DNA of 20,000 bases, from IMG/VR virus record IMGVR_UViG_3300045923_000198; one strand, 5' to 3'. This document shows, piece by piece, positions 5,361 to 18,756 of this stretch. The notes beneath the pieces were generated by a model, which was not told the DNA's origin, did not search any database, and saw only the letters and a list, made by a program, of their open reading frames with translations. How positions within the stretch are numbered: the first letter of the stretch is position 1; every line of letters begins with the position of its first letter. This DNA comes from an uncultured virus (IMG/VR IMGVR_UViG_3300045923_000198). Taxonomy: Duplodnaviria; Heunggongvirae; Uroviricota; Caudoviricetes. A program made the translations under genes and the position numbers.

Positions 5361-6245
5361 ATGAGCGAGACCGTGAAACGAGGAACCATCCACTGGTACG
5401 GCACGATGCCGGAGTCCCGTGGGGCAGCATCGGCCCCCGCCTCAGGGGTGGTGGAAATCGGCCACTACCCGAGCGGGGAGCCTGTCATCAACTTCCCCAA
5501 CCGGGGAGTCCAGGTCAAGAGACTTCTCCTGCGTCCCATGTCGATGCTCGACCTCATGGGAGGACTGTTCTTCGCCGATGCGCTCCAGGAACGGGGGCAG
5601 AGGTTGATCGAACTGGTCCTGCCGTTCGTCCCCGGCGCGCGGCAGGACAGGATGAACTCCGAAGGGGACTACCTCTTCACGGCGAAGTCCGTCGCGAAGG
5701 ACATCAACGCCCGGACCTTTCGCAAGGTCACAGTCCTCGACCCGCATTCGGAGGTGATCTCCGGCATGATCAACCGCTGCTCCATCGTCCACGCCGACGA
5801 GTGCGTGCGCTACGGCTTGGGGCACGGCCTCGTCACCGCCTCGCGCTACACGGCGGTCGTCTCGCCGGACTCGGGTGCCGAGAAGAGGGCTGGCGCCGTC
5901 GCGAGGATGCTCTCACTGCCGATGATCCACGGGTGGAAGACGCGCGACGTCTCCAACGGCAAGATCACCGGCTTCGGACTCGAACGGGCGGACATCTCCG
6001 GGCACGTCCTGGTCGTGGACGACATCTGCGACGGCGGCGGGACCTTCGTCGGTCTCGCGTCGATCCTGAAGGAGCGGAACCTGAAGGCGGACCTCTACGT
6101 CACGCACGGGATCTTCTCGCAGGGCACCGCGAGGCTCCTGGAACACTACGAGCAAGTGATTTGCACGGACTCCTTGGAGGTAGTTCCCTCGACTGGTGTA
6201 GTAGTCCTTCCCGTGAGCCAGAACCTCTTCGAAGGGACGACCTAA
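5361..6245 (+). CDS. prs: Ribose-phosphate pyrophosphokinase-like protein (candidate ADPR-PP synthetase, Adps)
   Basis: PRPP synthetase motifs: PGARQDR, LDPHS, SPDSGAEKRA, KTRD, VVDDICDGGGTF (PRPP-binding loop), VTHGIFS. Confidence 0.9.
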   Translation: MSETVKRGTIHWYGTMPESRGAASAPASGVVEIGHYPSGEPVINFPNRGVQVKRLLLRPMSMLDLMGGLFFADALQERGQRLIELVLPFVPGARQDRMNSEGDYLFTAKSVAKDINARTFRKVTVLDPHSEVISGMINRCSIVHADECVRYGLGHGLVTASRYTAVVSPDSGAEKRAGAVARMLSLPMIHGWKTRDVSNGKITGFGLERADISGHVLVVDDICDGGGTFVGLASILKERNLKADLYVTHGIFSQGTARLLEHYEQVICTDSLEVVPSTGVVVLPVSQNLFEGTT

Positions 6246-6248
6246 ACC

Positions 6249-7766
6249 ATGCGTAGCTGCCTCATTCCCGGAACGTTCGTGCCCGATCCGATGACCCTCA
6301 TCGACGGGTACAAGTTCGACCACCGCCGTCAGTACCCGCCGGGCACGAGCCTGGTCAGCTCGAACTGGACCCCTCGCAGCTCGCGCGTACCGGGGCACAA
6401 GAAGGTCGTCTACGCAGGCGGGCAGTATTTCCGCCAGAAGATCCTCGTCGAAGCCTTCCGTGAGTTCTTCGGCGACAGCGAGAACGCTGCGGCCAAGCGC
6501 TACGAGCGGCGCACCAACGGCTATCTCGGCCCCAACACCATCGGATCGGATCACATCCGGCAGCTTCACCGGCTCGGGTACATCCCGCTCCTGTTCCGTG
6601 CCGTCCCCGAAGGCACTGCGGTGCCCCTGCGTGTGCCGATGGTCACCATCGAGAACACGCACCCGGACTTCGCGTGGATGCCCAACTACTTCGAGACGAT
6701 CATGTCGTGCGAGCAGTGGATCCCCTGCACGTCAGCGACGACTGCTCTCGGGTTCCGGCGCCTCCTCGAAGCGGCGGCCAAGAAGACCGGCAGCCCTCCC
6801 GAGTTCGTGGACTGGCAGGCGCACGACTTCTCCTTCCGGGGCTTGCCTGGCCTCGAAGCCGCGATGCTCTCGGGTCTCGGTCACCTGCTCTACTTCACGG
6901 GCACGGACACGGTCCCTGCACTCGATCTGATCGAGGACTACTACGGCGTCCCCGATGGGTACCTCATCGGGGGGTCGGTCAACGCCACGGAGCACTCTGT
7001 CATGTGCGCTGGCGGCGAGGGCAACGAGCGGGAGACGATTCTTCGCCTGCTCGACCTCTATCCCGAAGGCATTCTGTCCGTCGTCTCCGACACGTGGGAC
7101 CTCTGGCATGTCCTCACGAAGATCCTGCCCGACCCCGAGGTCAAGGCCAAGATCATGAACCGCAACGGCAAGTACGTCACCCGGCCCGACTCGGGCAATC
7201 CGGCCAGCATCCTGTGCGGGATCCCGGGCTCGTACCGCAGCGACTACAACAAAACTCCCGCCGAGAAGGGCGTCATCGAGTTGCTGTGGGAGACCTTCGG
7301 CGGCACCGTGACTTCAACGGGGCACCGCTTGCTCGACTCCCACGTGGGGGCCATCTACGGGGACTCGATCACCCGGGAGCGTGGACAGGAGATCACTAGC
7401 CGCCTCGATGAGCAGAGGTTCGCTTCGGCCAACGTCGTCTACGGCATCGGCTCGTACACGTACCAGTACGTCACTCGCGATACCTACGGTTTCGCGATGA
7501 AGGCTACGTACGTCGAGATCAACGGCAAGGGCAAGGACATCTTCAAGAGCCCCAAGACCGACGACGGGGTGAAGCACTCCGCCCGCGGTCGCCTCGCTGT
7601 GCTCCGGGGCTCGGACGGCGAGATGCACCTCGTCGAACAGGCGACGCCCGAGCAGGAGGCGATGTCCCTTCTGCGCCCCGTCTGGAAGGACGGCAAGCCG
7701 CTCCTGCACGAGACCTTCGACATGGTACGCGCAACCGCCAGGCTCGCCCTGGCAGAACCGGCCTGA
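6249..7766 (+). CDS. nadV: Nicotinamide phosphoribosyltransferase-like protein (candidate Namat)
   Basis: NAMPT motifs: DGYKFDHRRQYP, HDFSFRG, FTGTDT, ATEHSVMC, SVVSDTWD, RPDSG, IYGDSIT, GIGSYTYQYVTRDT, KSPKTDDGVKHSARG. Starts 3 nt after the prs-like gene. Confidence 0.93.
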   Translation: MRSCLIPGTFVPDPMTLIDGYKFDHRRQYPPGTSLVSSNWTPRSSRVPGHKKVVYAGGQYFRQKILVEAFREFFGDSENAAAKRYERRTNGYLGPNTIGSDHIRQLHRLGYIPLLFRAVPEGTAVPLRVPMVTIENTHPDFAWMPNYFETIMSCEQWIPCTSATTALGFRRLLEAAAKKTGSPPEFVDWQAHDFSFRGLPGLEAAMLSGLGHLLYFTGTDTVPALDLIEDYYGVPDGYLIGGSVNATEHSVMCAGGEGNERETILRLLDLYPEGILSVVSDTWDLWHVLTKILPDPEVKAKIMNRNGKYVTRPDSGNPASILCGIPGSYRSDYNKTPAEKGVIELLWETFGGTVTSTGHRLLDSHVGAIYGDSITRERGQEITSRLDEQRFASANVVYGIGSYTYQYVTRDTYGFAMKATYVEINGKGKDIFKSPKTDDGVKHSARGRLAVLRGSDGEMHLVEQATPEQEAMSLLRPVWKDGKPLLHETFDMVRATARLALAEPA

Positions 7767-9236: not shown

Positions 9237-9887
9237 ATGATCCGCGCCATCGGCTTTGAAGGTGTCCCTGGTCCGCAGCGTCAACCCGCACGTCTCGCGG
9301 GCATCTTCGTGGACGAGGACAACTGCCGTGTGACCTGGAAGGGCAACGGTTTTCGTCGCATGTCCAACCGGACCGTAACTCATCTCCCGGCCAGCTCCAC
9401 AACCCGCATCGAGCCGCCCATCGAGGCGATCGTGGACTCCGCCTTCCTCGTGCTCGATAGCCGTGACCTGGAAGTGTGGCAGGCTGCCGCTTTCCAGAAC
9501 GAGCCCCCGAACGCTCTGCCCGGCCCCGAGAAAGTCCGCGACCAAATGCGGGCCATCGGTGGGATGTGCCATGCGTGGCTCTGCACGCCACCGGCCGCCC
9601 TGCGTGTGCTTGGCGTGCTCCGCGACGCCGCCATTTGGGACCTATCCGCAGCGCTGGCGAAGAGCGACGACATCCGGGTCTACGAGCTGGCTTGGCGCGT
9701 CCACCGCTGCGCTGTCAACGACGACGACATCTTCATCGTCGCCGCTGCCCTGGAGCAGTCCATCCACCCTGACCGCGCTACCGACTTGCTCAAGGGGCAC
9801 TTCTACGAGATGCCGCCCACTGCTCAGGAGTCCGCACTCAGCCTCGCCAGGACACGGCTTGACGCGCTCAAGAGCCTAGTCCCCTAG
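9237..9887 (+). CDS. Hypothetical protein
   Basis: GGAGGAG RBS before ATG. 216 aa. Confidence 0.7.
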   Translation: MIRAIGFEGVPGPQRQPARLAGIFVDEDNCRVTWKGNGFRRMSNRTVTHLPASSTTRIEPPIEAIVDSAFLVLDSRDLEVWQAAAFQNEPPNALPGPEKVRDQMRAIGGMCHAWLCTPPAALRVLGVLRDAAIWDLSAALAKSDDIRVYELAWRVHRCAVNDDDIFIVAAALEQSIHPDRATDLLKGHFYEMPPTAQESALSLARTRLDALKSLVP

Positions 9888-10217
9888 ATCATCTTCCTCA
9901 GGTCCGCGGTCTTCCAGGACGATGTAACCCGGATGAAGACCATCATGAACCTCGCGATGGCATCGACAACAGAGCAGGACGCACTTGTCCAGCTCGCGTT
10001 GAACGCGAACCCATGAGGACACGCCGGACGAGATTTCGAAGTCCTTCTCCTGCGGGTCGAGATGGTGGAAGTCGAAGGCGGCCGGCGACTTGTCGTAGCC
10101 GCAGATCGCACAGCGACCACCCTTGTAAGCGACCGCTCGATCTCGTAGGTCCCGGCGACGACTAGCGGCCTTCTGTCGCCGCTGCCAGCGCTCCTCATCC
10201 GATTTCACCGAGGCCAT
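9876..10217 (-). CDS. HNH endonuclease family protein (Zn-binding)
   Basis: YKGGRCAICGY...FDFHHLDP...ELDKCVLLCCRCHREVH is a typical phage HNH pattern. Real start is probably ATG 10217, not 10823. Confidence 0.85.
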   Translation of the reverse strand: MASVKSDEERWQRRQKAASRRRDLRDRAVAYKGGRCAICGYDKSPAAFDFHHLDPQEKDFEISSGVSSWVRVQRELDKCVLLCCRCHREVHDGLHPGYIVLEDRGPEEDDLGD

Positions 10218-10247
10218 CGCCTGCCCCGGTGTACAAGTAGGAAGACG

Positions 10248-10865
10248 ATGTTCTTTCGAGACGAAGACGACGATCTGCGCCGCACACCGCCTCGCAACCT
10301 CGGCATCGAGGCAGGCTTGAACGATCGTGAACGAGCGCAGGCGGCGTACGACCGGATGATGCGGAGCCACCCCGGCCAGATGATGGACTCCGGGGTCACC
10401 GTGGACGATGTGCTGAAGAAGCCGTTGCCAACCCCGCCACCTCGTCCTGCCAAGCCTGAAGAACCCACGGGTGCGATGGCCCGCTACACCGCTCGCATCG
10501 AGAAGTTCGAGAAAGACGGGCGTCCCATGCCCCGTCTTCGGCATCATGCCCTCTGGCTCCTGCACAACTGCGTGGCGCACCCACTTCTGGCCGTGACAGG
10601 CAAGAACGTTCAGCCGCTCGCCGTCGAGTTCCACGAGTTGACGAGCCAGTGGCTCAATCACAAGAGGGCCGCCAATGTTCCAGGTGGCCCCGTGGAACGC
10701 CGTGACCGCTTCCTCCAGATCATGATGCCCCAGGTCGAGAACGAAGGCTCCTGGTTCATCCACAATGTCCTCGCCCACGTGGCCATCGGCCTCGTGCCCT
10801 GCAAGACCACCTTCGACCTGCACGACTGGAGCGCCGAAGTGATGGGCGTTCCTGGATGGGTCTGA
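10248..10865 (+). CDS. Hypothetical protein with duplicated W-x-x-HN-x-x-AH motif
   Basis: AGGAAG RBS and an upstream CGGTGTA. Internal repeat WLLHNCVAHP...FHE / WFIHNVLAHV...LHD. Confidence 0.75.
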   Translation: MFFRDEDDDLRRTPPRNLGIEAGLNDRERAQAAYDRMMRSHPGQMMDSGVTVDDVLKKPLPTPPPRPAKPEEPTGAMARYTARIEKFEKDGRPMPRLRHHALWLLHNCVAHPLLAVTGKNVQPLAVEFHELTSQWLNHKRAANVPGGPVERRDRFLQIMMPQVENEGSWFIHNVLAHVAIGLVPCKTTFDLHDWSAEVMGVPGWV

Positions 10866-11551
10866 GCGAGAAGGTCGCCGCTGCCATCGAGGCCGCCGAC
10901 TTCGTGGTGGGGTCGGACGAGTGCGGATACGGTGCCTGGGCCGGTCCCCTGGTCGTCTGCGCGGCCGTTCTGCCCAAGGCGTGGCCCTACGTCCACCTGG
11001 TCCGAGACTCGAAGCAGGTGCGGACTGAGGAGCAGCGCGAGGCCATTGCCAGGCAGATCCTCCCGCACCTCACCTACGAGATCCTGAGCGTCCCTCCCGA
11101 GGACATCGACCGCATCGGCGTGTCCAAGGTGCTGCCTTGGGCGCACGGCAAGGTGCTCGACCTGGTCATCGCGAAGCACGAGGCGTCGGGTGCCAGGGGC
11201 CAGCGTATCGTCATCGTAGACGGCTCGCTGAGCATCCTCTACGGCGAAGGCCAGAAGGCGATCTCGGTCGTCAAGGGCGACTCCCTCGTCACAGCGGTGT
11301 CCGCGGCCAGCATCCTCGGCAAGGTCGCCAGAGACACGACCATGATCGCCTTGGCGGCCAAGTTCCCCGGCTACGGCTTCGAGAGCCATAAGGGCTACGG
11401 TGGCGGAGACGACCACGCGCACACCCTCGCGCTAGAGAAGCTCGGCCCCTGCGAGATCCACCGCAAGAGCTACAGCCCGGTCCGGAACCGGATGCAAGGC
11501 CCGAGCACGAGCCTCTTCGATCTGGCGATGAGCGGAGAGCTGGACGACTAA
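10856..11551 (+). CDS. rnhB: Ribonuclease HII
   Basis: GSDECGYGAWAGPLVV, RDSK, IVDG, KGDS..VSAASILGKVARD, HKGYG, G.C.IHRKSY. Confidence 0.93.
   Translation: MGLSEKVAAAIEAADFVVGSDECGYGAWAGPLVVCAAVLPKAWPYVHLVRDSKQVRTEEQREAIARQILPHLTYEILSVPPEDIDRIGVSKVLPWAHGKVLDLVIAKHEASGARGQRIVIVDGSLSILYGEGQKAISVVKGDSLVTAVSAASILGKVARDTTMIALAAKFPGYGFESHKGYGGGDDHAHTLALEKLGPCEIHRKSYSPVRNRMQGPSTSLFDLAMSGELDD
11507..11548 (+). repeat. Coding repeat copy 1: TSLFDLAMSGELDD
   Basis: acg agc ctc ttc gat ctg gcg atg agc gga gag ctg gac gac. Matches 12428..12469 at 34 of 42 nt, and all differences are synonymous. Confidence 0.95.
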
Positions 11552-11569
11552 CGCGGTGTAGGGGGTCGC

Positions 11570-12481
11570 GTGAAACACGCGCACCCGTTCATCAAGTGGG
11601 TTGGCGGCAAGACGCAGCTATTGCCCAAGCTCCTGGGACTGATCCCGAAAGAGATCAAGACCTACTACGAGCCGTTCCTGGGAGGGGGTGCTGTCTTCTG
11701 GGCCCTCGCCAAAGAGGGGCGCTTCGAGCAGGCCATACTCAACGACTGGAACGAGGAGCTGACCAACACATACAAGGTCGTCCGCGACAAGCCGGAGTCC
11801 CTCATCGAGCAGCTCACTATCTTCGCGGACGAGTACAAGGCCAACCCAGAGGAGACATTCAGTACCATCCGCGCGTACGACCGCGAGGACATCACGAAGT
11901 ACAACCCCGTGGTCCGCGCAGCACGGATGATCTTCCTCAACAAGACCTGCTACAACGGCCTGTACCGGGTGAACAAGGCGGGCCAGTTCAACAGCCCGTT
12001 CGGCGAGTTCAAGACTCCGCCAACCGTCTGTGATGCGCAGAATATCCGGGACTGCTCTGCGGTACTCGAAAAGGTACCAACCATCCACACGGGGGACTTC
12101 GCCCTGATCGCAGAGATGGCGACCGAAGGGGATGTGGTCTACTTCGATCCCCCGTACGAGCCCGTCTCGGACACGGCCGACTTCACCTCATACACGGAGG
12201 TTGGCTTCGGACGAGAAGACCAGCTCCGGCTGGCCTCCCTGTTCAAGAAGCTCGCCGAGCGTGGCGTCCGGGTGCTCATGTCCAACCACGACACGCCGAG
12301 CATCCGCGAGATGTACGCGGGCTTCGAGGTCATCCAAGTTCCGGCCCGACGCAACATCAACAGCAAGGGCTCGAAGCGCGGGCACGTCATGGAGGTTGTT
12401 GTTGTGAGCCACCCGGTGCCGAAGGACACCAGCTTGTTCGACCTCGCGATGAGCGGGGAGCTGGATGATGCAGCACCATGA
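11570..12481 (+). CDS. dam: DNA adenine methyltransferase (Dam/D12 family)
   Basis: PFIKWVGGK, YYEPFLGGGAV (motif I), FLNKTCYNGLYRVN...FNSPFG, YFDPPY (motif IV), RRNINSKG. GATC specificity is inferred from family only. Confidence 0.93.
   Translation: MKHAHPFIKWVGGKTQLLPKLLGLIPKEIKTYYEPFLGGGAVFWALAKEGRFEQAILNDWNEELTNTYKVVRDKPESLIEQLTIFADEYKANPEETFSTIRAYDREDITKYNPVVRAARMIFLNKTCYNGLYRVNKAGQFNSPFGEFKTPPTVCDAQNIRDCSAVLEKVPTIHTGDFALIAEMATEGDVVYFDPPYEPVSDTADFTSYTEVGFGREDQLRLASLFKKLAERGVRVLMSNHDTPSIREMYAGFEVIQVPARRNINSKGSKRGHVMEVVVVSHPVPKDTSLFDLAMSGELDDAAP
12428..12469 (+). repeat. Coding repeat copy 2: TSLFDLAMSGELDD
   Basis: acc agc ttg ttc gac ctc gcg atg agc ggg gag ctg gat gat, followed by AAP and stop. 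Confidence 0.95.
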
Positions 12482-12834
12482 GGCGGTTCTATCTACGGCG
12501 TGACGAAGATCTGAGCGGGGTCTCAGGGAGCGGAGTCGTCGCCGAGGGTGTGGTGTTCTGGAACGGCAAGTGCGTGCTCAACTGGCGCACGAAGTTCACG
12601 AGCACGGCGCACTACGACGACCTGGAGACGCTCTTGAACGTGCACGGGCACGGCGGCAAGACCCGGCTCATCTGGTTCGACGACAAGCCTTCGGAGCCGA
12701 AGGCCAGCATGGGCGAAGCCGCTCAACCGGCTTGCTCATTCTGTAGCAAGCTCGCGAACGAGGTGAAGCTCCTCACCTCCGGGTTGCCTTCGTCGCACGC
12801 GTACATCTGCGACGAGTGCAAGGCCAAGCCTTAG
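12478..12834 (+). CDS. Phage-type hypothetical domain fused to a ClpX-type C4 zinc finger
   Basis: ATGA overlap with dam. N-terminal RRFYLRRDEDLSGVSGSGVVAEG...HGHGGKT. C-terminal CSFCSK..EVKLLTSG...YICDEC resembles the zf-C4_ClpX pattern CSFCGK..V..L..G...ICDEC. Confidence 0.75.
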   Translation: MRRFYLRRDEDLSGVSGSGVVAEGVVFWNGKCVLNWRTKFTSTAHYDDLETLLNVHGHGGKTRLIWFDDKPSEPKASMGEAAQPACSFCSKLANEVKLLTSGLPSSHAYICDECKAKP

Positions 12835-13199
12835 CCGAGCTTCGGCGGCTTGGGGAAGTGCAGCCACTTGTTGCGGGCGAGCAGGTCGTAGAGCACCGGC
12901 TCCAAGAAGGACACGACCATCTCCTCGCGGGCGATCCGGGAGTCCCGAGTTCGGCCGCCGAGGACCTTCTCCTTCATGTCCCCGCTGTGCGCGTGGAAGC
13001 ACACGTGAAGAAGCTCGTGGAGGAGCTTCATCTTGAGGAACGCCTCGTCGGGACACCACGAGATCTCGATGGTGCTGGTTTCCTCGTCGTAGTACGCGTC
13101 GCAGGGGATCCCATCGAGGATGATGGGCTTCTTCGTCAGGTAGACGCGAACCTCACTCCCGTGAGCTGCAACCTTGCACCAGAGGCGACGCCCCTTCAT
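12831..13199 (-). CDS. Small HExxH zincin-like metallopeptidase domain protein
   Basis: DAYYDEETSTIEI...LLHELLHVCF...EEMVV, with HExxH at 13005-13019 plus a distal Glu. GAGG RBS. Confidence 0.7.
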   Translation of the reverse strand: MKGRRLWCKVAAHGSEVRVYLTKKPIILDGIPCDAYYDEETSTIEISWCPDEAFLKMKLLHELLHVCFHAHSGDMKEKVLGGRTRDSRIAREEMVVSFLEPVLYDLLARNKWLHFPKPPKLG

Positions 13200-13208
13200 C
13201 GCGGCCTC

Positions 13209-14501
13209 TCACTTCCCACCCCGAGAGACGGGGATCTCCTCCCGGTAGGCCGTGTCGTCCTCGATGATCTGCGGCTTCTCCATCTCGAAGTACGCGCGGT
13301 ACTCGTGGATGAAGGACCGCAAGGTCCCGTGTGACGTCAGGTCCCAGGAAAGGATCATCCCTCCGATCGCCGGCGCGCCGCCAAGCGACTTGGAGAAGGC
13401 GCTACCGCCACCTTGGAACGTCGGACACGCCACCGCGTGGACTCCGCGCTCGTAGACGTGGCAGTACACGTGCCAGTGACCTGCCAGGAGGATGTTCGGC
13501 TTCTCGCCCGAAGCGTACTTCTCGACGTGCTTCTGGAGGGCGTACGAGCGGGCGTACGACACACCCGAACGCGGGTGCCAAAGGTGGACGATGGCGCCCT
13601 TGACCTTGAGGAAGGCCCCGCGGTTGCCGTAGAAGTGCAGGTCGTTGCGGCCGCGCTTGCGGAAGTAGCCGGTCAGGAAGTGGCCGACGTCCACGCCCGA
13701 GTTCTCGGTGAACGTGAAGTCGTGGTTGCCGGTGATGGCCCGGTAGTTGAGCCCCGGCAGTTGCGGTAGGGTCTCGAAGAGATCCCGCGCTTGGTCGTCC
13801 AGACCCACGTGCGATACCTCGAAGACGCCGTGCCTGTACATACCGTCGAGAACGTCGCCCGGGTGCAGGATCTCCCTCACACCTTGCTCGTAGGCGTAGT
13901 GGACGAACTCCTTGAGCTGCTCCCGCATGCAGTATTTGGAGCCGAGGTGCGTGTCCGAGATGACACCGACCTTCTGGCGCTCTCCGATGACCGGAGCGAT
14001 GCCCACCTGGCGCACGCGCTCTTCAGGCTGCGCGGAGCGGATACCGACGTGGTTGTTCTCCACGTGCAGCCGGATCCCCATCTCCTTCGCTTGCTCGATG
14101 AGCCCGCGCGTCTTGGACGGAGACAGGTCCAGCTTGTCGCACAGGTCGGCGAAGACCACTGGACCACGCCGGGAGACCTGCACGAGCTTGTGTAGGGGAC
14201 TTCCTGGGTCGAACCCGTTGTCGTCCTCGCCCTCGTCGTCATCCTCTTCGTCAGCGGCATTGTTGGGGCCGCTAGCGTTGGGGGACATTCTGTCCTGTTC
14301 ATCGGACTCATCGTCCTCTGCACAGTACGTAGAGGGAGGTCCCAGCTCGTGTCTCAGGAACACTGACCTGAGCGCGTGTGCTGTTACATCACGGCCGATG
14401 ACTCGTTGAATCTCTTCAACTGCATCGCGAAAGCGCCCGACTGAGTATTTACGCAGGATCTCTTTGGCTCGCCTGAGATCCGCCCCCGTCCATACAACCA
14501 T
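13209..14501 (-). CDS. Calcineurin-like metallophosphoesterase with N-terminal HTH-like domains
   Basis: All five motifs present: SDTH, GDVLDG, GNHD, WHP, GHWH. Acidic linker. HTH-like LCDKLDLSPSKTRGLIEQAKEMG. Confidence 0.85.
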   Translation of the reverse strand: MVVWTGADLRRAKEILRKYSVGRFRDAVEEIQRVIGRDVTAHALRSVFLRHELGPPSTYCAEDDESDEQDRMSPNASGPNNAADEEDDDEGEDDNGFDPGSPLHKLVQVSRRGPVVFADLCDKLDLSPSKTRGLIEQAKEMGIRLHVENNHVGIRSAQPEERVRQVGIAPVIGERQKVGVISDTHLGSKYCMREQLKEFVHYAYEQGVREILHPGDVLDGMYRHGVFEVSHVGLDDQARDLFETLPQLPGLNYRAITGNHDFTFTENSGVDVGHFLTGYFRKRGRNDLHFYGNRGAFLKVKGAIVHLWHPRSGVSYARSYALQKHVEKYASGEKPNILLAGHWHVYCHVYERGVHAVACPTFQGGGSAFSKSLGGAPAIGGMILSWDLTSHGTLRSFIHEYRAYFEMEKPQIIEDDTAYREEIPVSRGGK

Positions 14502-15775: not shown

Positions 15776-16507
15776 TCAGGTGAGGAAACGAGCAGCGACA
15801 CGCTCGGCGAGCCCAAGCGAAGCCGTTTTCGTTACGGCAGTTGACCCCTCGGTCGTGTAGGTGGATTCGAGCCCAGGATCGAGATAGTTGAAGCGAATCA
15901 AGTCCGCTTCCAGACCGACCTCATCGGCCACCTTGTCGAGAGTCTTGAGGAACTCAGCGCGAAGCACCTTGGTACGAGCCCGGCGCTGCGTGGGAAGCGA
16001 TTGCCCGGCCGACCGTGTTTCGTTCAGAGCCGAATGCATCCTGACGTTGGCGTTGTAGCCTCGGATGTCCTTCATCGAGAGCTTGTGCCGGCTCAAATAA
16101 TCCCCGACCATCTCGGCCGTGACCCTGCCTGTGTCGTGGGCGAACAGCTCGTCGTTGTCGTCTTCTGTGGTCTCGAACGCCGTCTGAAGAGCCTGGATGA
16201 TGGTCCGGTTCGCTATCGGCCGACGCTTGCCAGCGCTTCGGTAGGTCGCGGACCACTCTTCCTCCCCCAACTCGACGTTCTTCTTACGCCAACCCACGGG
16301 GTCCTCGTTGGTCTCCACCATGAGGCCAACCGCCAAAGCCGTGAGGAACCTGTTCGGGTCTCCAGAACTCAAGTCGCGGCGGATGCGTCCCTGCATCGAC
16401 TCGACCGCCGAACGAATGCGGCTCAAGCGTCGCGAGGTCGAGCGTGCCTTGCGCTCCTCGCTCATCATACCCTTGGCTTTCGCGCGTGCGAGAACGTTGA
16501 AGTTCAC
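15776..16507 (-). CDS. Degenerate DNA topoisomerase IB catalytic-core homolog
   Basis: RIRRDL...ALAVGLMVET, LF...VT...V.DYL, KDIRGYNAN, VADEVG...IRFNYLDP follow the bacterial/viral TopIB order. Start GTG 16507 has a GAGGAGG RBS and a GTGA overlap with the upstream stop. Confidence 0.75.
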   Translation of the reverse strand: MNFNVLARAKAKGMMSEERKARSTSRRLSRIRSAVESMQGRIRRDLSSGDPNRFLTALAVGLMVETNEDPVGWRKKNVELGEEEWSATYRSAGKRRPIANRTIIQALQTAFETTEDDNDELFAHDTGRVTAEMVGDYLSRHKLSMKDIRGYNANVRMHSALNETRSAGQSLPTQRRARTKVLRAEFLKTLDKVADEVGLEADLIRFNYLDPGLESTYTTEGSTAVTKTASLGLAERVAARFLT

Positions 16508-18756
16508 GCTGTGGCCTCCTCGTCGGCGGGCGGCAAGCCCTCGGGAGCCTTGCCGGTCTTGATGACACTCAGGAGCCACTTCGAGGGCTCTTCCTTGAGG
16601 TGGCCAAGCACGAACGTTGTCAGCAACTCGGCGAACCATTCCATGTGGTTCTTGCGCGAGTAGGTCGTGGGGACCCAATCGTGGAGCTGCACTTCGTAGC
16701 GGTCGTCGGGCTTGCTGATCTCTCCCTTCAGAGTCTCATAGACCTCGTGCCGTTCCTTCTCGACCTCTTTCAGCTCCCGCTCCTTCGCCTCGTCCTTCCC
16801 CACGTAAGTCAACGTGGAGGCAGACTCCGGCACGACAAGCGGGCCTGGCCCACGACGATACATCGAGCTGCGGAGGAGGTACTTCTCCGGCGCTTCGATG
16901 ATCTCGATGAGGACGTCCCGGCCCTTCTTGCCGACGATCTTCCCCTTGATGTGGTACTGAACACCGTTTGACCAGGTGTCGTACTCGACCACGGTTCCCT
17001 TGCGTGGGAGCGGCCGGTGGATGTACTGCGTCTCTTCCAGTTCCTTGTAGCGCTTGTTGAGTACGTCGAGGCGCCGCTTCAGCACGTCTCGCGATCCCCC
17101 AGCTTGCGTGCGCTTCTGGCGCATGGCCCACATGAAGCGGGTCATGACCTCGACGTTGTTCTGGCCGCCCGGCACCACCTTGTCGTGGTAGTAGTGCGCC
17201 AGCTCGTGGATCAACGTGTGGAGGAAGCTTGCGTCCTCGTACGCCTTGGGTGCCACCTGGATCGCGGGTGGGCTCGAACCCATGTGGTACACGGCGGCTG
17301 CGTGCGAGCCGATGCCGCCACCGTAGAGCGCCACAAGGATGTTGTCCTGAAGCGGCACCCCGGCGGCCTGGTACTTCTGCTCGGACTCCAGGAGTAGCTT
17401 GCCAACTTCTTCGAGGTGCTCGGCGTGCTGCTTGATGTAGCGCACCTTGAACCGACCGAACTGCTCCTCGTTGAACTGCACTGCCGCGTGCCGGTTCTTG
17501 AGGGCGTCGCGAAGGCTCTGGTCCGGGCCGATGCCGAGGTTGTTCCGAAGCGTGTTCGCCATCGAGTGGGCCTCGTTGTACGAGATCCCCATCTCCTGCA
17601 TGATCTGACGGTCGCTCATCCCTGACATGAACAGGTGGGCGAAGTCGTGGAGCTTCTTGTCGAAGGCCCCGCCACCCGTGCACTTGCAGCCGCCAGCGGT
17701 CTTGCCGGCCGCCTCGGCTTCCGCCTGTGCCTTGAGCGCGTTCTCCTTCACGTCTGCACGCCAGACCTTGTAGAGCCCGAAGACCTTGTTCTGCTTGCGG
17801 CCCTTGGGAATCGGCTCGACTTCGATCGTGGGGTTGCCCCACTTGTCCGTACTGAAACCAACGATCTTGCCGCGCTTGTTCTTGTACTTGCCGTACAGAA
17901 CGATGTCGCCCGGCTTGAAGTAGTTCGCGTACTTGAGTGCGACGCTGGCGGCGAGTCGGTCCATTCCCCCTTGCTCGTCGAAAAGTAGCTTAGCCTGCTC
18001 CATCCGGTCGTAGACGCCCTTGAGGATGGTCGCCTTGTTCTTCGGCGTCAGATGGTCCTCGATGACCTTCCACGTCGTGGACAGAAGCAGCGCGTAGTGC
18101 AGGAGTTTCTGATTGGGGTGGGGGTCCTTCTCGGCGCGCTCCCGTAGCATCACATGCATCTGGTCGCTCTTGCCGACGTTGTGGATCACCTCGTCGGCGA
18201 TCTGCTGCATGAAGGCCCGGACCTCCGAGGGATCGTTGATGTATGGACCCCAGGCCGCCTCCCCCTTCTCCATGACTTCCTTGGGGGAGTAGGTCAGCCC
18301 TTTCATGTGATCCATCTCGGCGGCGTGCGTCGCCTCGTGGATCAGGAGTGAGTACAGGCCGTAGTTCAGGCACGTCTCAGCCCGGCACGAGTGAATGGGC
18401 TGGATGCGAAGAGGAGCCGTGAGGGACCCTTCTGTGTTCAGGTACTCGGCCGGAGTGAGCGCCCCGTTGATCTCCAGCTCGATCACCCCGGGACGTGTCC
18501 GGCCTCCGAGCACGGCAGCGTACTTGCCCTTAGCCTCACGAGCCGACACGTAAACGTCGTACCGAAGAGGGTAGCCTTTGACGGACTCGATCCGAAGCGG
18601 CTCTCCGCGGACGATCCCGTCCACATGCCCGATCGGCTCGTCTTGCTTCTGCCGGCGCAACCAGCGCACGATCTCCGGCACAAGCTGGCCTTCGACGAAC
18701 TGCGCAATCGCGCCCTTGTCGAGCCAGATCGGTCGGGTAGCAGAGCGGTCCATCAT
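16504..18756 (-). CDS. Multidomain polyvalent-type protein: two HExxH zincin domains, an SH3/KOW-like and an HTH-like module
   Basis: LIHEATH...DPSEVRA; FKPGDIVLYGKYKNKRGKIVG; MSGMSDRQIMQEMGISYNEAHSMANTLRNNLG; LIHELAH...YSRKNHMEWFAE. AGGAG RBS and an ATGA overlap with the upstream gene. Confidence 0.8.
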   Translation of the reverse strand: MMDRSATRPIWLDKGAIAQFVEGQLVPEIVRWLRRQKQDEPIGHVDGIVRGEPLRIESVKGYPLRYDVYVSAREAKGKYAAVLGGRTRPGVIELEINGALTPAEYLNTEGSLTAPLRIQPIHSCRAETCLNYGLYSLLIHEATHAAEMDHMKGLTYSPKEVMEKGEAAWGPYINDPSEVRAFMQQIADEVIHNVGKSDQMHVMLRERAEKDPHPNQKLLHYALLLSTTWKVIEDHLTPKNKATILKGVYDRMEQAKLLFDEQGGMDRLAASVALKYANYFKPGDIVLYGKYKNKRGKIVGFSTDKWGNPTIEVEPIPKGRKQNKVFGLYKVWRADVKENALKAQAEAEAAGKTAGGCKCTGGGAFDKKLHDFAHLFMSGMSDRQIMQEMGISYNEAHSMANTLRNNLGIGPDQSLRDALKNRHAAVQFNEEQFGRFKVRYIKQHAEHLEEVGKLLLESEQKYQAAGVPLQDNILVALYGGGIGSHAAAVYHMGSSPPAIQVAPKAYEDASFLHTLIHELAHYYHDKVVPGGQNNVEVMTRFMWAMRQKRTQAGGSRDVLKRRLDVLNKRYKELEETQYIHRPLPRKGTVVEYDTWSNGVQYHIKGKIVGKKGRDVLIEIIEAPEKYLLRSSMYRRGPGPLVVPESASTLTYVGKDEAKERELKEVEKERHEVYETLKGEISKPDDRYEVQLHDWVPTTYSRKNHMEWFAELLTTFVLGHLKEEPSKWLLSVIKTGKAPEGLPPADEEATA

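Follow-up and report, generated by a model that had tools for sequence, protein, structure and literature searches.

Shared C-terminal peptide of RNase HII and Dam

A single 14-residue peptide, TSLFDLAMSGELDD, is common to the C-terminal regions of the adjoining RNase HII and Dam-type methyltransferase genes of a high-GC jumbo phage. The explanation that we favour, with modest confidence, is that this flexible tail was copied from RNase HII to Dam and may dock both enzymes on the beta clamp of the phage, giving fork-coupled repair and methylation. The phage record (IMG/VR IMGVR_UViG_3300045923_000198) comprises 362,937 bp (approximately 363 kb) and was estimated by CheckV to be 76% complete; the window is the 20,000-nucleotide stretch of it that was analysed. 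The relevant features of the window are listed below.

10856..11551, + strand: RNase HII gene, 231 aa (ORF; Pfam PF01351, RNase_HII)
11507..11548, + strand: tag copy 1, TSLFDLAMSGELDD, RNase HII residues 218–231, extreme C-terminus
11570..12481, + strand: Dam-type (D12 class) N6-adenine DNA methyltransferase gene, 303 aa, GTG start (ORF; PF02086)
12428..12469, + strand: tag copy 2, TSLFDLAMSGELDD, Dam residues 287–300, 8 synonymous nucleotides different from copy 1
12470..12481, + strand: Ala-Ala-Pro extension (12470–12478) and stop codon (12479–12481) of Dam
12478..12834, + strand: gene for a protein of 118 aa that carries a ClpX-type C4 zinc finger at its C-terminus (PF06689, 1.3e-7; phrog_7499)

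The bodies of the two enzymes belong to unrelated families by Pfam. RNase HII, whose open reading frame ends in QGPSTSLFDLAMSGELDD before the stop, matched PF01351 over residues 18–207 with an E-value of 3.9e-23 and a score of 82.8 bits (cut-off 25.8). The predicted Dam ends in PKDTSLFDLAMSGELDDAAP and matched PF02086 (MethyltransfD12) over residues 10–263 with an E-value of 1.3e-65 and 222 bits, the match spanning profile positions 1–253 of 253. In RNase HII the catalytic domain is followed by a flexible linker and then by the tag. The AF2 model had a confident catalytic fold, with pLDDT of at least 96 to approximately residue 210 and values of 76, 55 and 46 thereafter, and contained a short low-confidence helix at residues 219–225. 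The end of the Pfam domain together with the fall in pLDDT from 96 to 46 over residues 211–231 indicates a flexible terminus of the kind in which clamp-binding motifs are sited. The Pfam domain of Dam stops at residue 263 of 303, ahead of the tag, and by these domain limits and the predicted model the tag belongs to a flexible terminus and to neither of the catalytic domains.

Pairwise codon comparison of the two tag copies gave 8 nucleotide differences in 7 codons and no amino-acid changes, exactly as an earlier note on this DNA had described, coordinates included. Seven of the differences are at third codon positions and one is at the first position of a leucine codon (CTC/TTG). By the Nei-Gojobori method 8 of 8.67 synonymous sites differ against 0 of 33.33 non-synonymous sites (one-sided Fisher P = 7.6e-8), and when 8 random substitutions were placed in the tag a fully synonymous outcome was obtained in 0 of 200,000 simulations. 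Identity between the flanks of the two copies was at the random level, 30% over 60 nt upstream and 33% over 30 nt downstream, so the sharing is confined to the tag. It is the peptide and not the DNA that is conserved, as the earlier note had proposed, and the tag is under purifying selection. Its further statement that both enzymes end in the tag holds for RNase HII, while in Dam the three residues AAP follow.

The two genes adjoin and share a reading frame, with the tag copies 921 nt apart, which is the expected origin of a duplicated 3' end, and the second copy could in principle be a functionless remnant of a neutral local duplication of the upstream gene. The contrast between saturated synonymous sites and an unchanged protein already contradicts that reading, and there was no sign of an overlapping nucleic-acid element that might constrain the two copies. 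The synonymous codon difference between the copies is 7/13, compared with 0.24–0.49 for eight genes between this phage and their orthologues in its closest relative, L032. Because the copies have diverged at least as far as the orthologues, the tag duplication is old, which fits the presence of the tag on both genes in both phages.

Conservation of the tail in related phages

In L032 the RNase HII tail is GLFDLATSGELDD and Dam ends in ESLFDLAMELD, so that both tails have been kept although the proteins have diverged to 59% and 74% identity. Conservation in orthologues, on which the earlier note had made its reading depend, was therefore found. An RNase HII and a Dam identical to those of this phage are also encoded on a contig of 569,965 bp. 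Among the matches listed, 96 of 120 RNase HII homologues carry a net-acidic hydrophobic tail; the corresponding counts are 47 of 361 for the proteins of this genome as a whole and 23 of 120 for the homologues of Dam. A stricter tail pattern, which gave 64 of 119 RNase HII sequences, missed tails of the EAWxGLDDE type and was replaced by this simpler criterion. On these counts the tail is native to the RNase HII of this jumbo-phage clade.

Tails of the LFDLA type on both enzymes were found in this phage and L032. In a second relative (L033), and in two pairs put together on the strength of their contigs being equally long, the RNase HII tail is FDFSTLGG and that of Dam is FDYSxLG, and one further pair has LWELLDDD and LYEVLDEE. 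Across 31 RNase HII/Dam pairs the tail score within the same genome was 17.6, against 14.3 ± 0.8 for shuffled pairs (P = 5e-4), and the matching persisted when the window of this phage was left out (P = 0.013). In some genomes, judging by these tails, Dam bears that genome's own version. A clearly shared tail is present in only 6 of the 31 pairs, and the Dam of many relatives has no tail or has a zinc ribbon in its place. The occurrence of independent tail types on the same gene pair in other genomes, together with retention of both tails in L032, leaves neutral duplication nearly untenable.

When all 362,937 bp of the record were scanned in six frames, GELDD or LFDLA adjoined a stop only in RNase HII and Dam. 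Comparison of the DNA of the region with 50,697 GenBank phage records gave no matches. An exact degenerate-DNA search of IMG/VR for LFDLAMSGELDD also gave none, the pattern being too strict since the tail varies among relatives. For RNase HII loci in IMG/VR, a single-sequence search returned 0 and an alignment query 1.

Distribution of tails within the genome

Beyond RNase HII and Dam, tag-like tails in this genome were found on a further pair of DNA methyltransferases and on two proteins without an assigned family. These methyltransferases end in QKDLFDEMADLPE and QMELFAHAQTIE, similar tails that contain QKDLF and QMELF and conform to the canonical Qx[DE]LF. The 936-aa methyltransferase has orthologues in two other jumbo phages, one finishing in ETFNLLAELDQEF and one with QQAFELMLGLGQEE in its terminal part. 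The pattern [SD]LFD occurs 8 times in the 361 proteins, with 4 occurrences in the last 20 residues against 0.56 expected (P = 0.0013), and [SDE]LF occurs in the last 16 residues of 10 of the 361, including 3 of 3 Pfam-defined DNA methyltransferases (P = 1.5e-5); the motif patterns and their statistics were set post hoc, with the data already seen.

The prediction that further DNA-metabolism enzymes would bear the tail was thus upheld for methyltransferases and not supported for the enzymes that the earlier note had named. The tag-like tail is not on PolA, the NAD ligase, the 5'-3' exonuclease or the helicases of the record, and the usual positive control is consequently missing. The family A polymerase (979 aa) ends in LNLSDGAIYPYPRA and so does not bear an epitope in the manner of the T4 polymerase; it was the only polymerase found in the 76%-complete record. 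Absence of the tail from orthologues and from other DNA-metabolism proteins, which according to the earlier note would, combined with lack of a binding partner, point to a neutral duplication, is not what was observed, because orthologues and other DNA-metabolism enzymes both carry tails.

Other C-termini of this genome are also acidic and hydrophobic, among them DDADIPF, HRRLMGDDEY and DFTDLFDNL. Since many of its proteins end in such different tails, several docking codes may coexist. Proteins ending in DFTELLDNV and DFTDLFDNL were considered as clamps or SSBs and rejected, as neither had a family match; their bodies are unrelated and their best BLASTP segment was the tail itself (E = 0.011).

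A tail that can be carried by unrelated enzymes might alternatively serve in sorting, by directing them into the capsid for co-injection or into a replication compartment. Capsid-like compartments are known to use C-terminal cargo peptides, and the virions of jumbo phages take up many proteins. General Pfam and PHROGs scans gave no match to signs of a nucleus-forming phage, every carrier of assigned function is a DNA-transaction enzyme, and the motif is similar to clamp peptides, all of which makes sorting highly improbable.

The zinc-finger gene downstream of Dam

The stop codon of Dam overlaps the ATG of the next gene (position 12478) in an ATGA arrangement. This next gene encodes the zinc-finger protein, which has no homologue in L032, where Dam is adjoined directly by a homologue of gene 12831–13199; a homologue was found downstream of Dam in another relative (L039). 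The AAP extension of Dam accompanies an additional gene downstream, one that is missing from the closest relative.

The ClpX-type finger of this protein, and a phage ClpX of 427 aa (G000:88778-90061) with zinc-finger, AAA_2 and D2-small domains, raise the alternative that ClpX or the zinc-finger protein reads the tail as a degradation or adaptor signal, which would time the removal of both enzymes. C-terminal ClpX degrons are non-polar, whereas the tails here end in acidic residues. L032 keeps both tails yet lacks the zinc-finger gene at that position, and the RNase HII tail is clade-wide and also present on contigs with no visible zinc-finger neighbour. A degradation signal is thus very unlikely, and on present evidence the zinc-finger protein is a weak alternative partner that stands outside the tag system.

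The phage clamp and its loader

The receptor proposed for the tail is encoded elsewhere in the record, as follows.

G000:244949-246259, minus strand: divergent beta sliding clamp, 436 aa (profile and fold searches)

This protein was spotted through its DnaN-like N-terminus and then examined by profile and fold searches. The profile of its family matched PDB beta clamps (8dt6_A, 3.2e-10). The AF2 model (pLDDT 96.7, pTM 0.93) has a three-domain DnaN-type fold, and the Foldseek matches listed were beta-clamp (DnaN) entries with E-values of approximately 1e-16 and TM-scores of 0.61–0.80. The family is present in 3 of the 4 relatives searched, including a complete genome of 398 kb. Six-frame searches of this record and three relatives gave no matches to the Pfam beta-clamp families PF00712, PF02767 and PF02768 or to Pol III alpha (PF07733), and no PHROG sliding-clamp match was obtained among 144 proteins scanned. 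The clamp-loader subunits tau/gamma, delta and delta' were found by Pfam and PHROGs, and a beta clamp and its loader subunits are therefore present in the same genome as the tails.

A 269-aa protein beside delta' was also considered as the clamp and was rejected, as it had no PDB match and its Atlas neighbours were unknown viral proteins; it gave a weak eCIS_core hint. Seven longer proteins were found as natural fusions of the clamp family, one with an MCM P-loop match and one with an HTH match, none of which bears on the tag.

Co-folding of the clamp with RNase HII residues 200–231, run without controls, gave scores of 0.64, 0.02 and 0.01, with a median of 0.02 against a mark of 0.32, an outcome that weighs on neither side of the binding question. 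The docking motif could also be real and its receptor another hub, such as an SSB-type protein, the family A polymerase, DnaB, RNA polymerase or another phage protein. The evidence from selection, flexibility and covariation applies equally to such a receptor, the tail is acidic with a helix-like spacing of hydrophobic residues, the polymerase has no tail of its own, and other acidic-hydrophobic tails are present in the genome. E. coli RNase HII, according to passages of PMC11253446, has no interaction with the beta clamp and partners RNA polymerase instead. No candidate for such a hub was found, whereas the SLFD[L/M] core agrees with a clamp peptide of known structure, the canonical Qx[DE]LF is present on two other methyltransferases, and the phage has a clamp and loader. 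We regard a different hub as possible but doubtful.

Proposed role of the tail

In the clamp-docking explanation, the 14-residue peptide would act as a short linear motif for docking, borne by a flexible linker at the C-terminus. Dam would have acquired the tail of the adjoining RNase HII when the 3' end of that gene was duplicated locally, long ago, and purifying selection would since have maintained it in both enzymes. The likeliest receptor would be the beta-type clamp that the phage itself encodes, bound at its hydrophobic cleft and presumably loaded by the phage tau/gamma, delta and delta' subunits. Riding on the clamp would set RNase HII, Dam and the methyltransferases with QKDLFDEMADLPE and QMELFAHAQTIE tails directly behind the polymerase, where ribonucleotides and primer remnants could be nicked, and GATC-type and other sites methylated, once the duplex had been made. 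The clamp as receptor and the fork-coupled outcome are inferences, the first of them plausible from the presence of a phage clamp and loader and from the likeness of the tag core to the RB69 and QL(D/S)LF peptides.

A broader version, which we put forward only tentatively, is a private clamp-centred system of these jumbo phages in which all the DNA methyltransferases and RNase HII would work on the phage clamp through a genome-specific tail 'dialect'. Such dialects (LFDLA, FDFSTLG, LWELLDD and others) would co-evolve with the phage clamp and would separate the clients, keeping those of the phage off the host clamp and those of the host off the phage clamp. To recruit a new client, it would be enough to copy 40 bp from an adjoining gene.

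If the tail docks on the clamp, methylation of phage DNA would be coupled to replication, closing the interval during which freshly made phage DNA has no methylation and is exposed to host restriction, and the arrangement would be the counterpart in a bacterial virus of the eukaryotic design of DNMT1 and RNase H2 on PCNA. Because synonymous sites are saturated while the protein is unchanged, the tag gives unusually clean evidence of a 14-residue motif moved between genes and then held by selection. The tail also offers a practical handle for pull-down of its receptor, and the dialects a read-out of interaction networks in uncultured giant phages.

Comparison with known docking tails

The tails share the hydrophobic and acidic character of the clamp-binding C-terminal epitopes of T4-type phages. 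RB69 gp43 ends in KKASLFDMFDF and has S-L-F-D-[L/M] in common with the tag; passages of PMC2988020 describe its last 11 residues co-crystallised on the RB69 clamp, and describe the T4/RB69 epitopes as hydrophobic-plus-acidic, joined by variable flexible linkers and interchangeable among unrelated phage proteins. The T4 clamp-binding termini are ASLDFLFG in gp43 and PSLDFLYEAND in gp55. These two tails, cited as precedents in the earlier note, were confirmed from the sequences and its QL(D/S)LF consensus from a passage of PMC6511837; the gp33 precedent was encountered in review passages of PMC2988020 alone. The tag is longer than the T4/RB69 epitopes, running on to AMSGELDD. The T4/RB69 carriers are the polymerase, the late sigma factor gp55 and the co-activator gp33, while here they are RNase HII and DNA methyltransferases, and the T4/RB69 clamp is a trimer of the gp45/PCNA type whereas that of this phage is of the beta (DnaN) type.

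Clients of the bacterial beta clamp carry a clamp-binding motif (CBM) with the consensus QL(D/S)LF, which tolerates variation and is sited in flexible termini (passages of PMC6511837). The tag shares with them its flexible terminal position and [S/D]-L-F. Against the consensus, its T-S-L-F segment agrees at 3 of 5 positions (S, L and F), with no glutamine and with threonine for leucine at position 2; the QKDLF and QMELF sister tails fit better. QLxLxL is the hexapeptide form of the beta-clamp motif. Unlike the CBM, the tag has conserved hydrophobic residues beyond the phenylalanine and an acidic tail, and the commonest variant of the family, xSFDFSTLGGDDE, has Ser/Gly-Phe where the consensus has Leu-Phe. 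The hydrophobic spacing F-D-L-A-M...L looks more like that of a short amphipathic helix than that of the canonical extended beta-clamp peptide. The literature searched contained no description of a clamp-tethered Dam or of a bacterial or phage RNase HII on a clamp.

In T7 the gp4 helicase and the gp2.5 SSB dock through acidic C-terminal tails on the gp5 polymerase, and the present phage is similar in having a family A polymerase and two unrelated replication proteins with an acidic tail and a key aromatic residue. The T7 tails end in phenylalanine and bind basic patches of the polymerase, whereas the tag of this phage has its aromatic residue in the interior, and the phage has a clamp to offer.

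Archaeal RNase HII and eukaryotic RNase H2B have PIP boxes that bind PCNA. Dnmt1 likewise bears a PCNA-binding motif, as stated in a passage of PMC9690074. These PCNA systems differ in that the tag has no QxxLxxFF, the clamp is of another type and the enzymes here are encoded by a phage, but the logic is the same, in that a terminal peptide tethers a type 2 RNase H, and likewise a maintenance methyltransferase, to the sliding clamp.

A peptide common to RNase HII and Dam

The RNase HII and Dam genes adjoin in the window, and each carries one copy of the same 14-residue tag near its C-terminus.

Genes and tag copies, in window coordinates
10856-11551, RNase HII gene (Pfam 3.9e-23)
11507-11548, tag TSLFDLAMSGELDD in RNase HII
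11570-12481, Dam gene (Pfam 1.3e-65)
12428-12469, tag TSLFDLAMSGELDD in Dam

The open reading frames and a codon comparison agreed with the earlier note that one peptide ends two enzymes at these positions and has diverged by synonymous change only. The copies differed at 8 nucleotides across 7 codons, all synonymous, with 8 of 8.67 synonymous and 0 of 33.33 non-synonymous sites changed (Fisher P = 7.6e-8), and the peptide was kept intact in 0 of 200,000 random trials of 8 substitutions, a pattern of selection on the peptide. The DNA flanking the copies was 30% and 33% identical, which is the chance level. Two copies in adjoining genes might suggest a neutral duplication, an explanation that is hardly credible beside this substitution pattern. 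Scanned in all six frames, the entire record had exact LFDLA and GELDD next to a stop in these two genes only. Dam had been described as ending in the tag; in fact Ala-Ala-Pro intervenes before its stop codon.

The copies share a reading frame and are 921 nt apart. Were the repeats identical, recombination between them would remove Dam. Selection against such a loss may have promoted the synonymous divergence of the copies; such selection on codons would supplement, not displace, the case for selection on the peptide.

The Pfam domain of RNase HII (231 residues) stops at residue 207, and that of Dam (303 residues) at residue 263. The AF2 model of RNase HII had a mean pLDDT of 94.0, with values of at least 96 to about residue 210 followed by 76, 55 and 46, and the sole structure drawn in the tail was a short low-confidence helix on SLFDLAM (219-225). 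As modelled, the tail is a flexible appendage.

The Dam stop is overlapped by a gene at 12478-12834 (+), whose 118-aa product has a ClpX-type C4 zinc finger at the C-terminus and matches phrog_7499 in its N-terminal part. The gene is missing at the same position in the closest relative (L032) and follows Dam in L039.

Other carriers of the tail in the genome

Gene calling from GC3 bias gave 361 genes in the record. With patterns picked after the data were seen, [SD]LFD occurred 8 times in the 361 proteins, 4 times within the last 20 residues against 0.56 expected (P = 0.0013; RNase HII, Dam, a 936-aa methyltransferase and a 280-aa protein), and [SDE]LF lay in the last 16 residues of 10 of the 361, including all 3 Pfam-defined DNA methyltransferases (hypergeometric P 1.5e-5, or 1.5e-4 when two weaker methyltransferase-like proteins were included).

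Further proteins with related C-terminal ends
N6/N4 DNA methyltransferase, 936 aa, ends ...SQKDLFDEMADLPE
280-aa protein of no known family, ends ...NDFTDLFDNL
288-aa neighbour of the 280-aa protein, unrelated body, ends ...GDFTELLDNV
third DNA methyltransferase, 242 aa, ends ...RRQMELFAHAQTIE
452-aa unknown protein of the replication module, ends ...KEQLDLLLPILS

The 936-aa enzyme has orthologues in two other jumbo phages, with the ends ...ETFNLLAELDQEF and ...QQQAFELMLGLGQEEKSGNHS; both fit the same pattern, F-[DNE]-L-x-x-x-L. The tail recurs on DNA-modifying enzymes: the scan for tag-like termini proposed in the earlier note returned RNase HII, Dam and two more DNA methyltransferases, besides proteins of no known family. 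The polymerase, ligase and nucleases had also been expected to carry it, and the polymerase, ligase, exonuclease and helicases of the record were without it. A sorting signal could likewise be common to several proteins, and as a reading of this set of enzymes it is highly improbable.

The 288-aa and 280-aa genes (G000:251754-253603 (-), in coordinates of the whole record) lie between RecA and RecD2 without family hits, and their tails follow long acidic disordered linkers. A 121-aa acidic Cys/His-rich protein without an SSB domain (G000:2525-2890 (+)) ends in ...EGDDADIPF, which we take to resemble the C-terminal tip of bacterial SSB; it may be a mimic of, or a competitor for, SSB-tip binding sites. 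A second tail family, which may be a separate docking code, was found on otherwise unannotated proteins (...TAWKRLMSTDDDD, ...TAHRRLMGDDEY, ...TAHQRLMSDDEY, ...TAYDHLLGDTLGEDE and ...TWYQHITDGDEGHE; G000:6446-7135, 26917-28413, 33166-33771, 82653-83189 and 42254-42589).

Origin and conservation of the tail

The RNase HII search returned 3,390 proteins at E <= 1e-10 among 4,180 candidates, and the C-termini of the best 120, many of them on contigs of 300-620 kb, were examined. The catalytic domains of these homologues stop at a conserved HR[KR]S[YF] motif, past which most run 15-30 residues into a hydrophobic-plus-acidic end such as xGSFDFSTLGGDDE (the commonest), GLFDLATSGELDD, DLFDMAMSGDLD, VLDLIALLDDDPV, NLWELLDDD or EDDPLFIIS. 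A tail with a net charge <= -2 in the last 14 residues and at least three F/W/Y/L/M/I in the last 18 was present in 96 of the best 120 RNase HII homologues (64 of 119 by an earlier, stricter pattern), compared to 23 of 120 Dam homologues and 47 of the 361 proteins of this genome. These counts mark the tail as native to this phage RNase HII lineage and Dam as its recipient.

In L032, RNase HII (59% identical) ends in ...NGLFDLATSGELDD and Dam (74% identical) in ...ESLFDLAMELD. Because this Dam also carries the tail, the tag on Dam is older than the split of the two phages; the proportion of degenerate codons that differ, 7 of 13 between the tag copies against 24-49% for window-L032 orthologous genes, agrees with this. 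Across window 10248-12481, identity to L032 is 57-74% for RNase HII, its upstream neighbour and Dam, and 81-89% for the flanking genes on both sides, which points to a cassette that evolves faster or was recombined.

For 31 RNase HII/Dam pairs that are not phylogenetically independent (14 from loci, 17 inferred from equal-sized contigs), the mean of the best ungapped tail matches was 17.6 within genomes and 14.3 +/- 0.8 for shuffled pairings (P = 5e-4; P = 0.013 with the window left out), and a clearly shared tail was present in only 6 of the 31. The pair at locus L033 ends in ...GGFDFSTLGGEDE (RNase HII) and ...PKFDYSSLGV (Dam), and database pairs, joined solely by equal-sized contigs, end in ...FDFSTLGGDED and ...KFDYSQLGE, ...FDFSDLGGDDE and ...KFDYSTLGV, and ...NLWELLDDD and ...PLYEVLDEEE. 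In other relatives the Dam tail is absent, of another type, or replaced by a C-terminal zinc ribbon; at L001/L002 the tails differ (RNase HII ...EPLFSWEVDL, Dam ...DPFTYMNALMEEF). RNase HII and Dam form a recurrent module, found together in 18 of 93 sources, many of them short or with a tail-less RNase HII.

In a complete 398-kb relative (G004), RNase HII ends in ...PDIMELLDSLE and Dam in a zinc ribbon with PDVFPLEC just before it. Three of its proteins of unknown family (L118:2568-2870, L120:8721-9194, L120:12548-13159) end in ...NMTLWDYIQEEG, ...TTLWEYLTDENEND and ...EKDLWDYVKG.

Replication genes and the phage beta clamp

The window corresponds to bases 54882-74881 of a record that spans 362,937 bp on a single contig (62.6% G+C, 76% complete by CheckV), assigned to a jumbo tailed phage by scans with Pfam (328 proteins outside the window set) and PHROGs (144 proteins). 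In IMG/VR the record is listed as a provirus, yet a 569,965-bp contig has proteins identical to the window RNase HII and Dam; the 363-kb record may have been trimmed from a far larger phage genome.

Replication and associated genes of the record
family A DNA polymerase, 979 aa
DnaB helicase, primase zinc ribbon, Toprim
5'-3' exonuclease, NAD ligase
RecA, RecD2, UvrD, SNF2 helicase
ribonucleotide reductase, ThyX
three clamp-loader subunits: tau/gamma-like 497 aa, delta 333 aa, delta' 318 aa
G000:88778-90061, ClpX, the phage's own full copy
G000:244949-246259, - strand, divergent beta sliding clamp, 436 aa, outside the window; also L025:1223-2533

With a full ClpX in the genome, the tail might be a ClpX or zinc-finger signal, which we consider very unlikely.

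A six-frame Pfam search of this record and of three related records matched neither the three DnaN domains nor Pol III alpha. The 436-aa protein, located in the replication module, has a DnaN-like start and belongs to a family of 154 representatives at E <= 0.001. A family profile (89 sequences) matched the PDB beta clamps 8dt6_A (3.2e-10, nearly full length), 1vpk_A (3.5e-8) and 7rzm_A (2.8e-6), and the Foldseek matches listed for its AF2 model (pLDDT 96.7, pTM 0.93) were bacterial beta clamps (E about 1e-16, TM 0.61-0.80). The phage encodes both a clamp and a clamp loader. Of 4 relatives searched, 3 had the clamp family, among them the complete 398-kb genome with terminal repeats; only a 27%-complete fragment lacked it. 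In jumbo phages with a T7-like polymerase and a clamp loader the clamp had gone undetected (PMC7824862); if the phage group is the same, the 436-aa family may be that clamp.

The record also encodes a ribosomal protein L7/L12 homologue, a Cpn60 chaperonin and a Volactin-family protein (PF25216, 2.5e-74) at G000:271599-272012, 263979-265628 and 186698-187711. At window 5361-7766 (+) a PRPP-synthetase-like protein adjoins a nicotinamide/nicotinate phosphoribosyltransferase (PF04095, 2.9e-34), and the two may form an NAD-salvage module of the phage; elsewhere the genome has NUDIX and NADAR genes. A small HNH endonuclease between phage genes on the opposite strand (9876-10262 (-); weak Pfam match, E 9e-4, under the gathering cut-off) may be a homing endonuclease. 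The window further contains a metallophosphoesterase of 430 aa whose N-terminal region is acidic (13209-14501 (-)) and a 300-aa protein (15776-16678 (-)) whose score for the eukaryotic-type topoisomerase I catalytic core lies exactly at the Pfam cut-off (23.7 bits).

Comparison with known docking motifs

On balance we lean towards the tail being a clamp-docking peptide, for which the cleft of the phage clamp would be the receptor. A clamp left on new duplex would then hold RNase HII and the methyltransferases, which would nick ribonucleotides and primer junctions and methylate adenines directly behind the fork.

GenBank records bear out the SLDFL-type ends that the earlier note gives for T4: gp43 ends in ...EEKASLDFLFG and gp55 in ...DDSPSLDFLYEAND, while RB69 gp43 ends in ...EKKASLFDMFDF. 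A review of T4 late transcription (PMC2988020) describes T4-type clamp epitopes as freely interchangeable and carried on a divergent unstructured linker, with the last 11 residues of RB69 polymerase co-crystallised on the hydrophobic patch of the clamp; this peptide and the tag both contain S-L-F-D-[L/M]. For bacterial clamps, the consensus in PMC6511837 is QL(D/S)LF, in agreement with the QL[SD]LF of the earlier note, with variation tolerated and flexible termini as the setting. The tag has the S-L-F of this motif and lacks the Gln, while the tails of both sister methyltransferases contain Q-x-[DE]-L-F. Dnmt1 is a known case of methylation tethered to PCNA (PMC9690074).

The missing Gln counts against a clamp receptor, as do the absence of the tail from any polymerase in the record and the different clamp type of T4 and RB69. 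The hydrophobic positions past the Phe are conserved and the helix is drawn there, which hints at another binding mode or receptor; that another hub receives the tail is nevertheless rather unlikely, and docking on the phage clamp remains the preferred reading. In the full-text literature searched, no paper described Dam, or an RNase HII from bacteria or phages, bound to a clamp.

Clamp-docking C-terminal tails on unrelated phage proteins are textbook knowledge for T4. The present case differs in its carriers, an RNase HII clade with Dam and other methyltransferases, in the beta type of the clamp, and in that selection is demonstrated by the substitution pattern and by within-genome matching.
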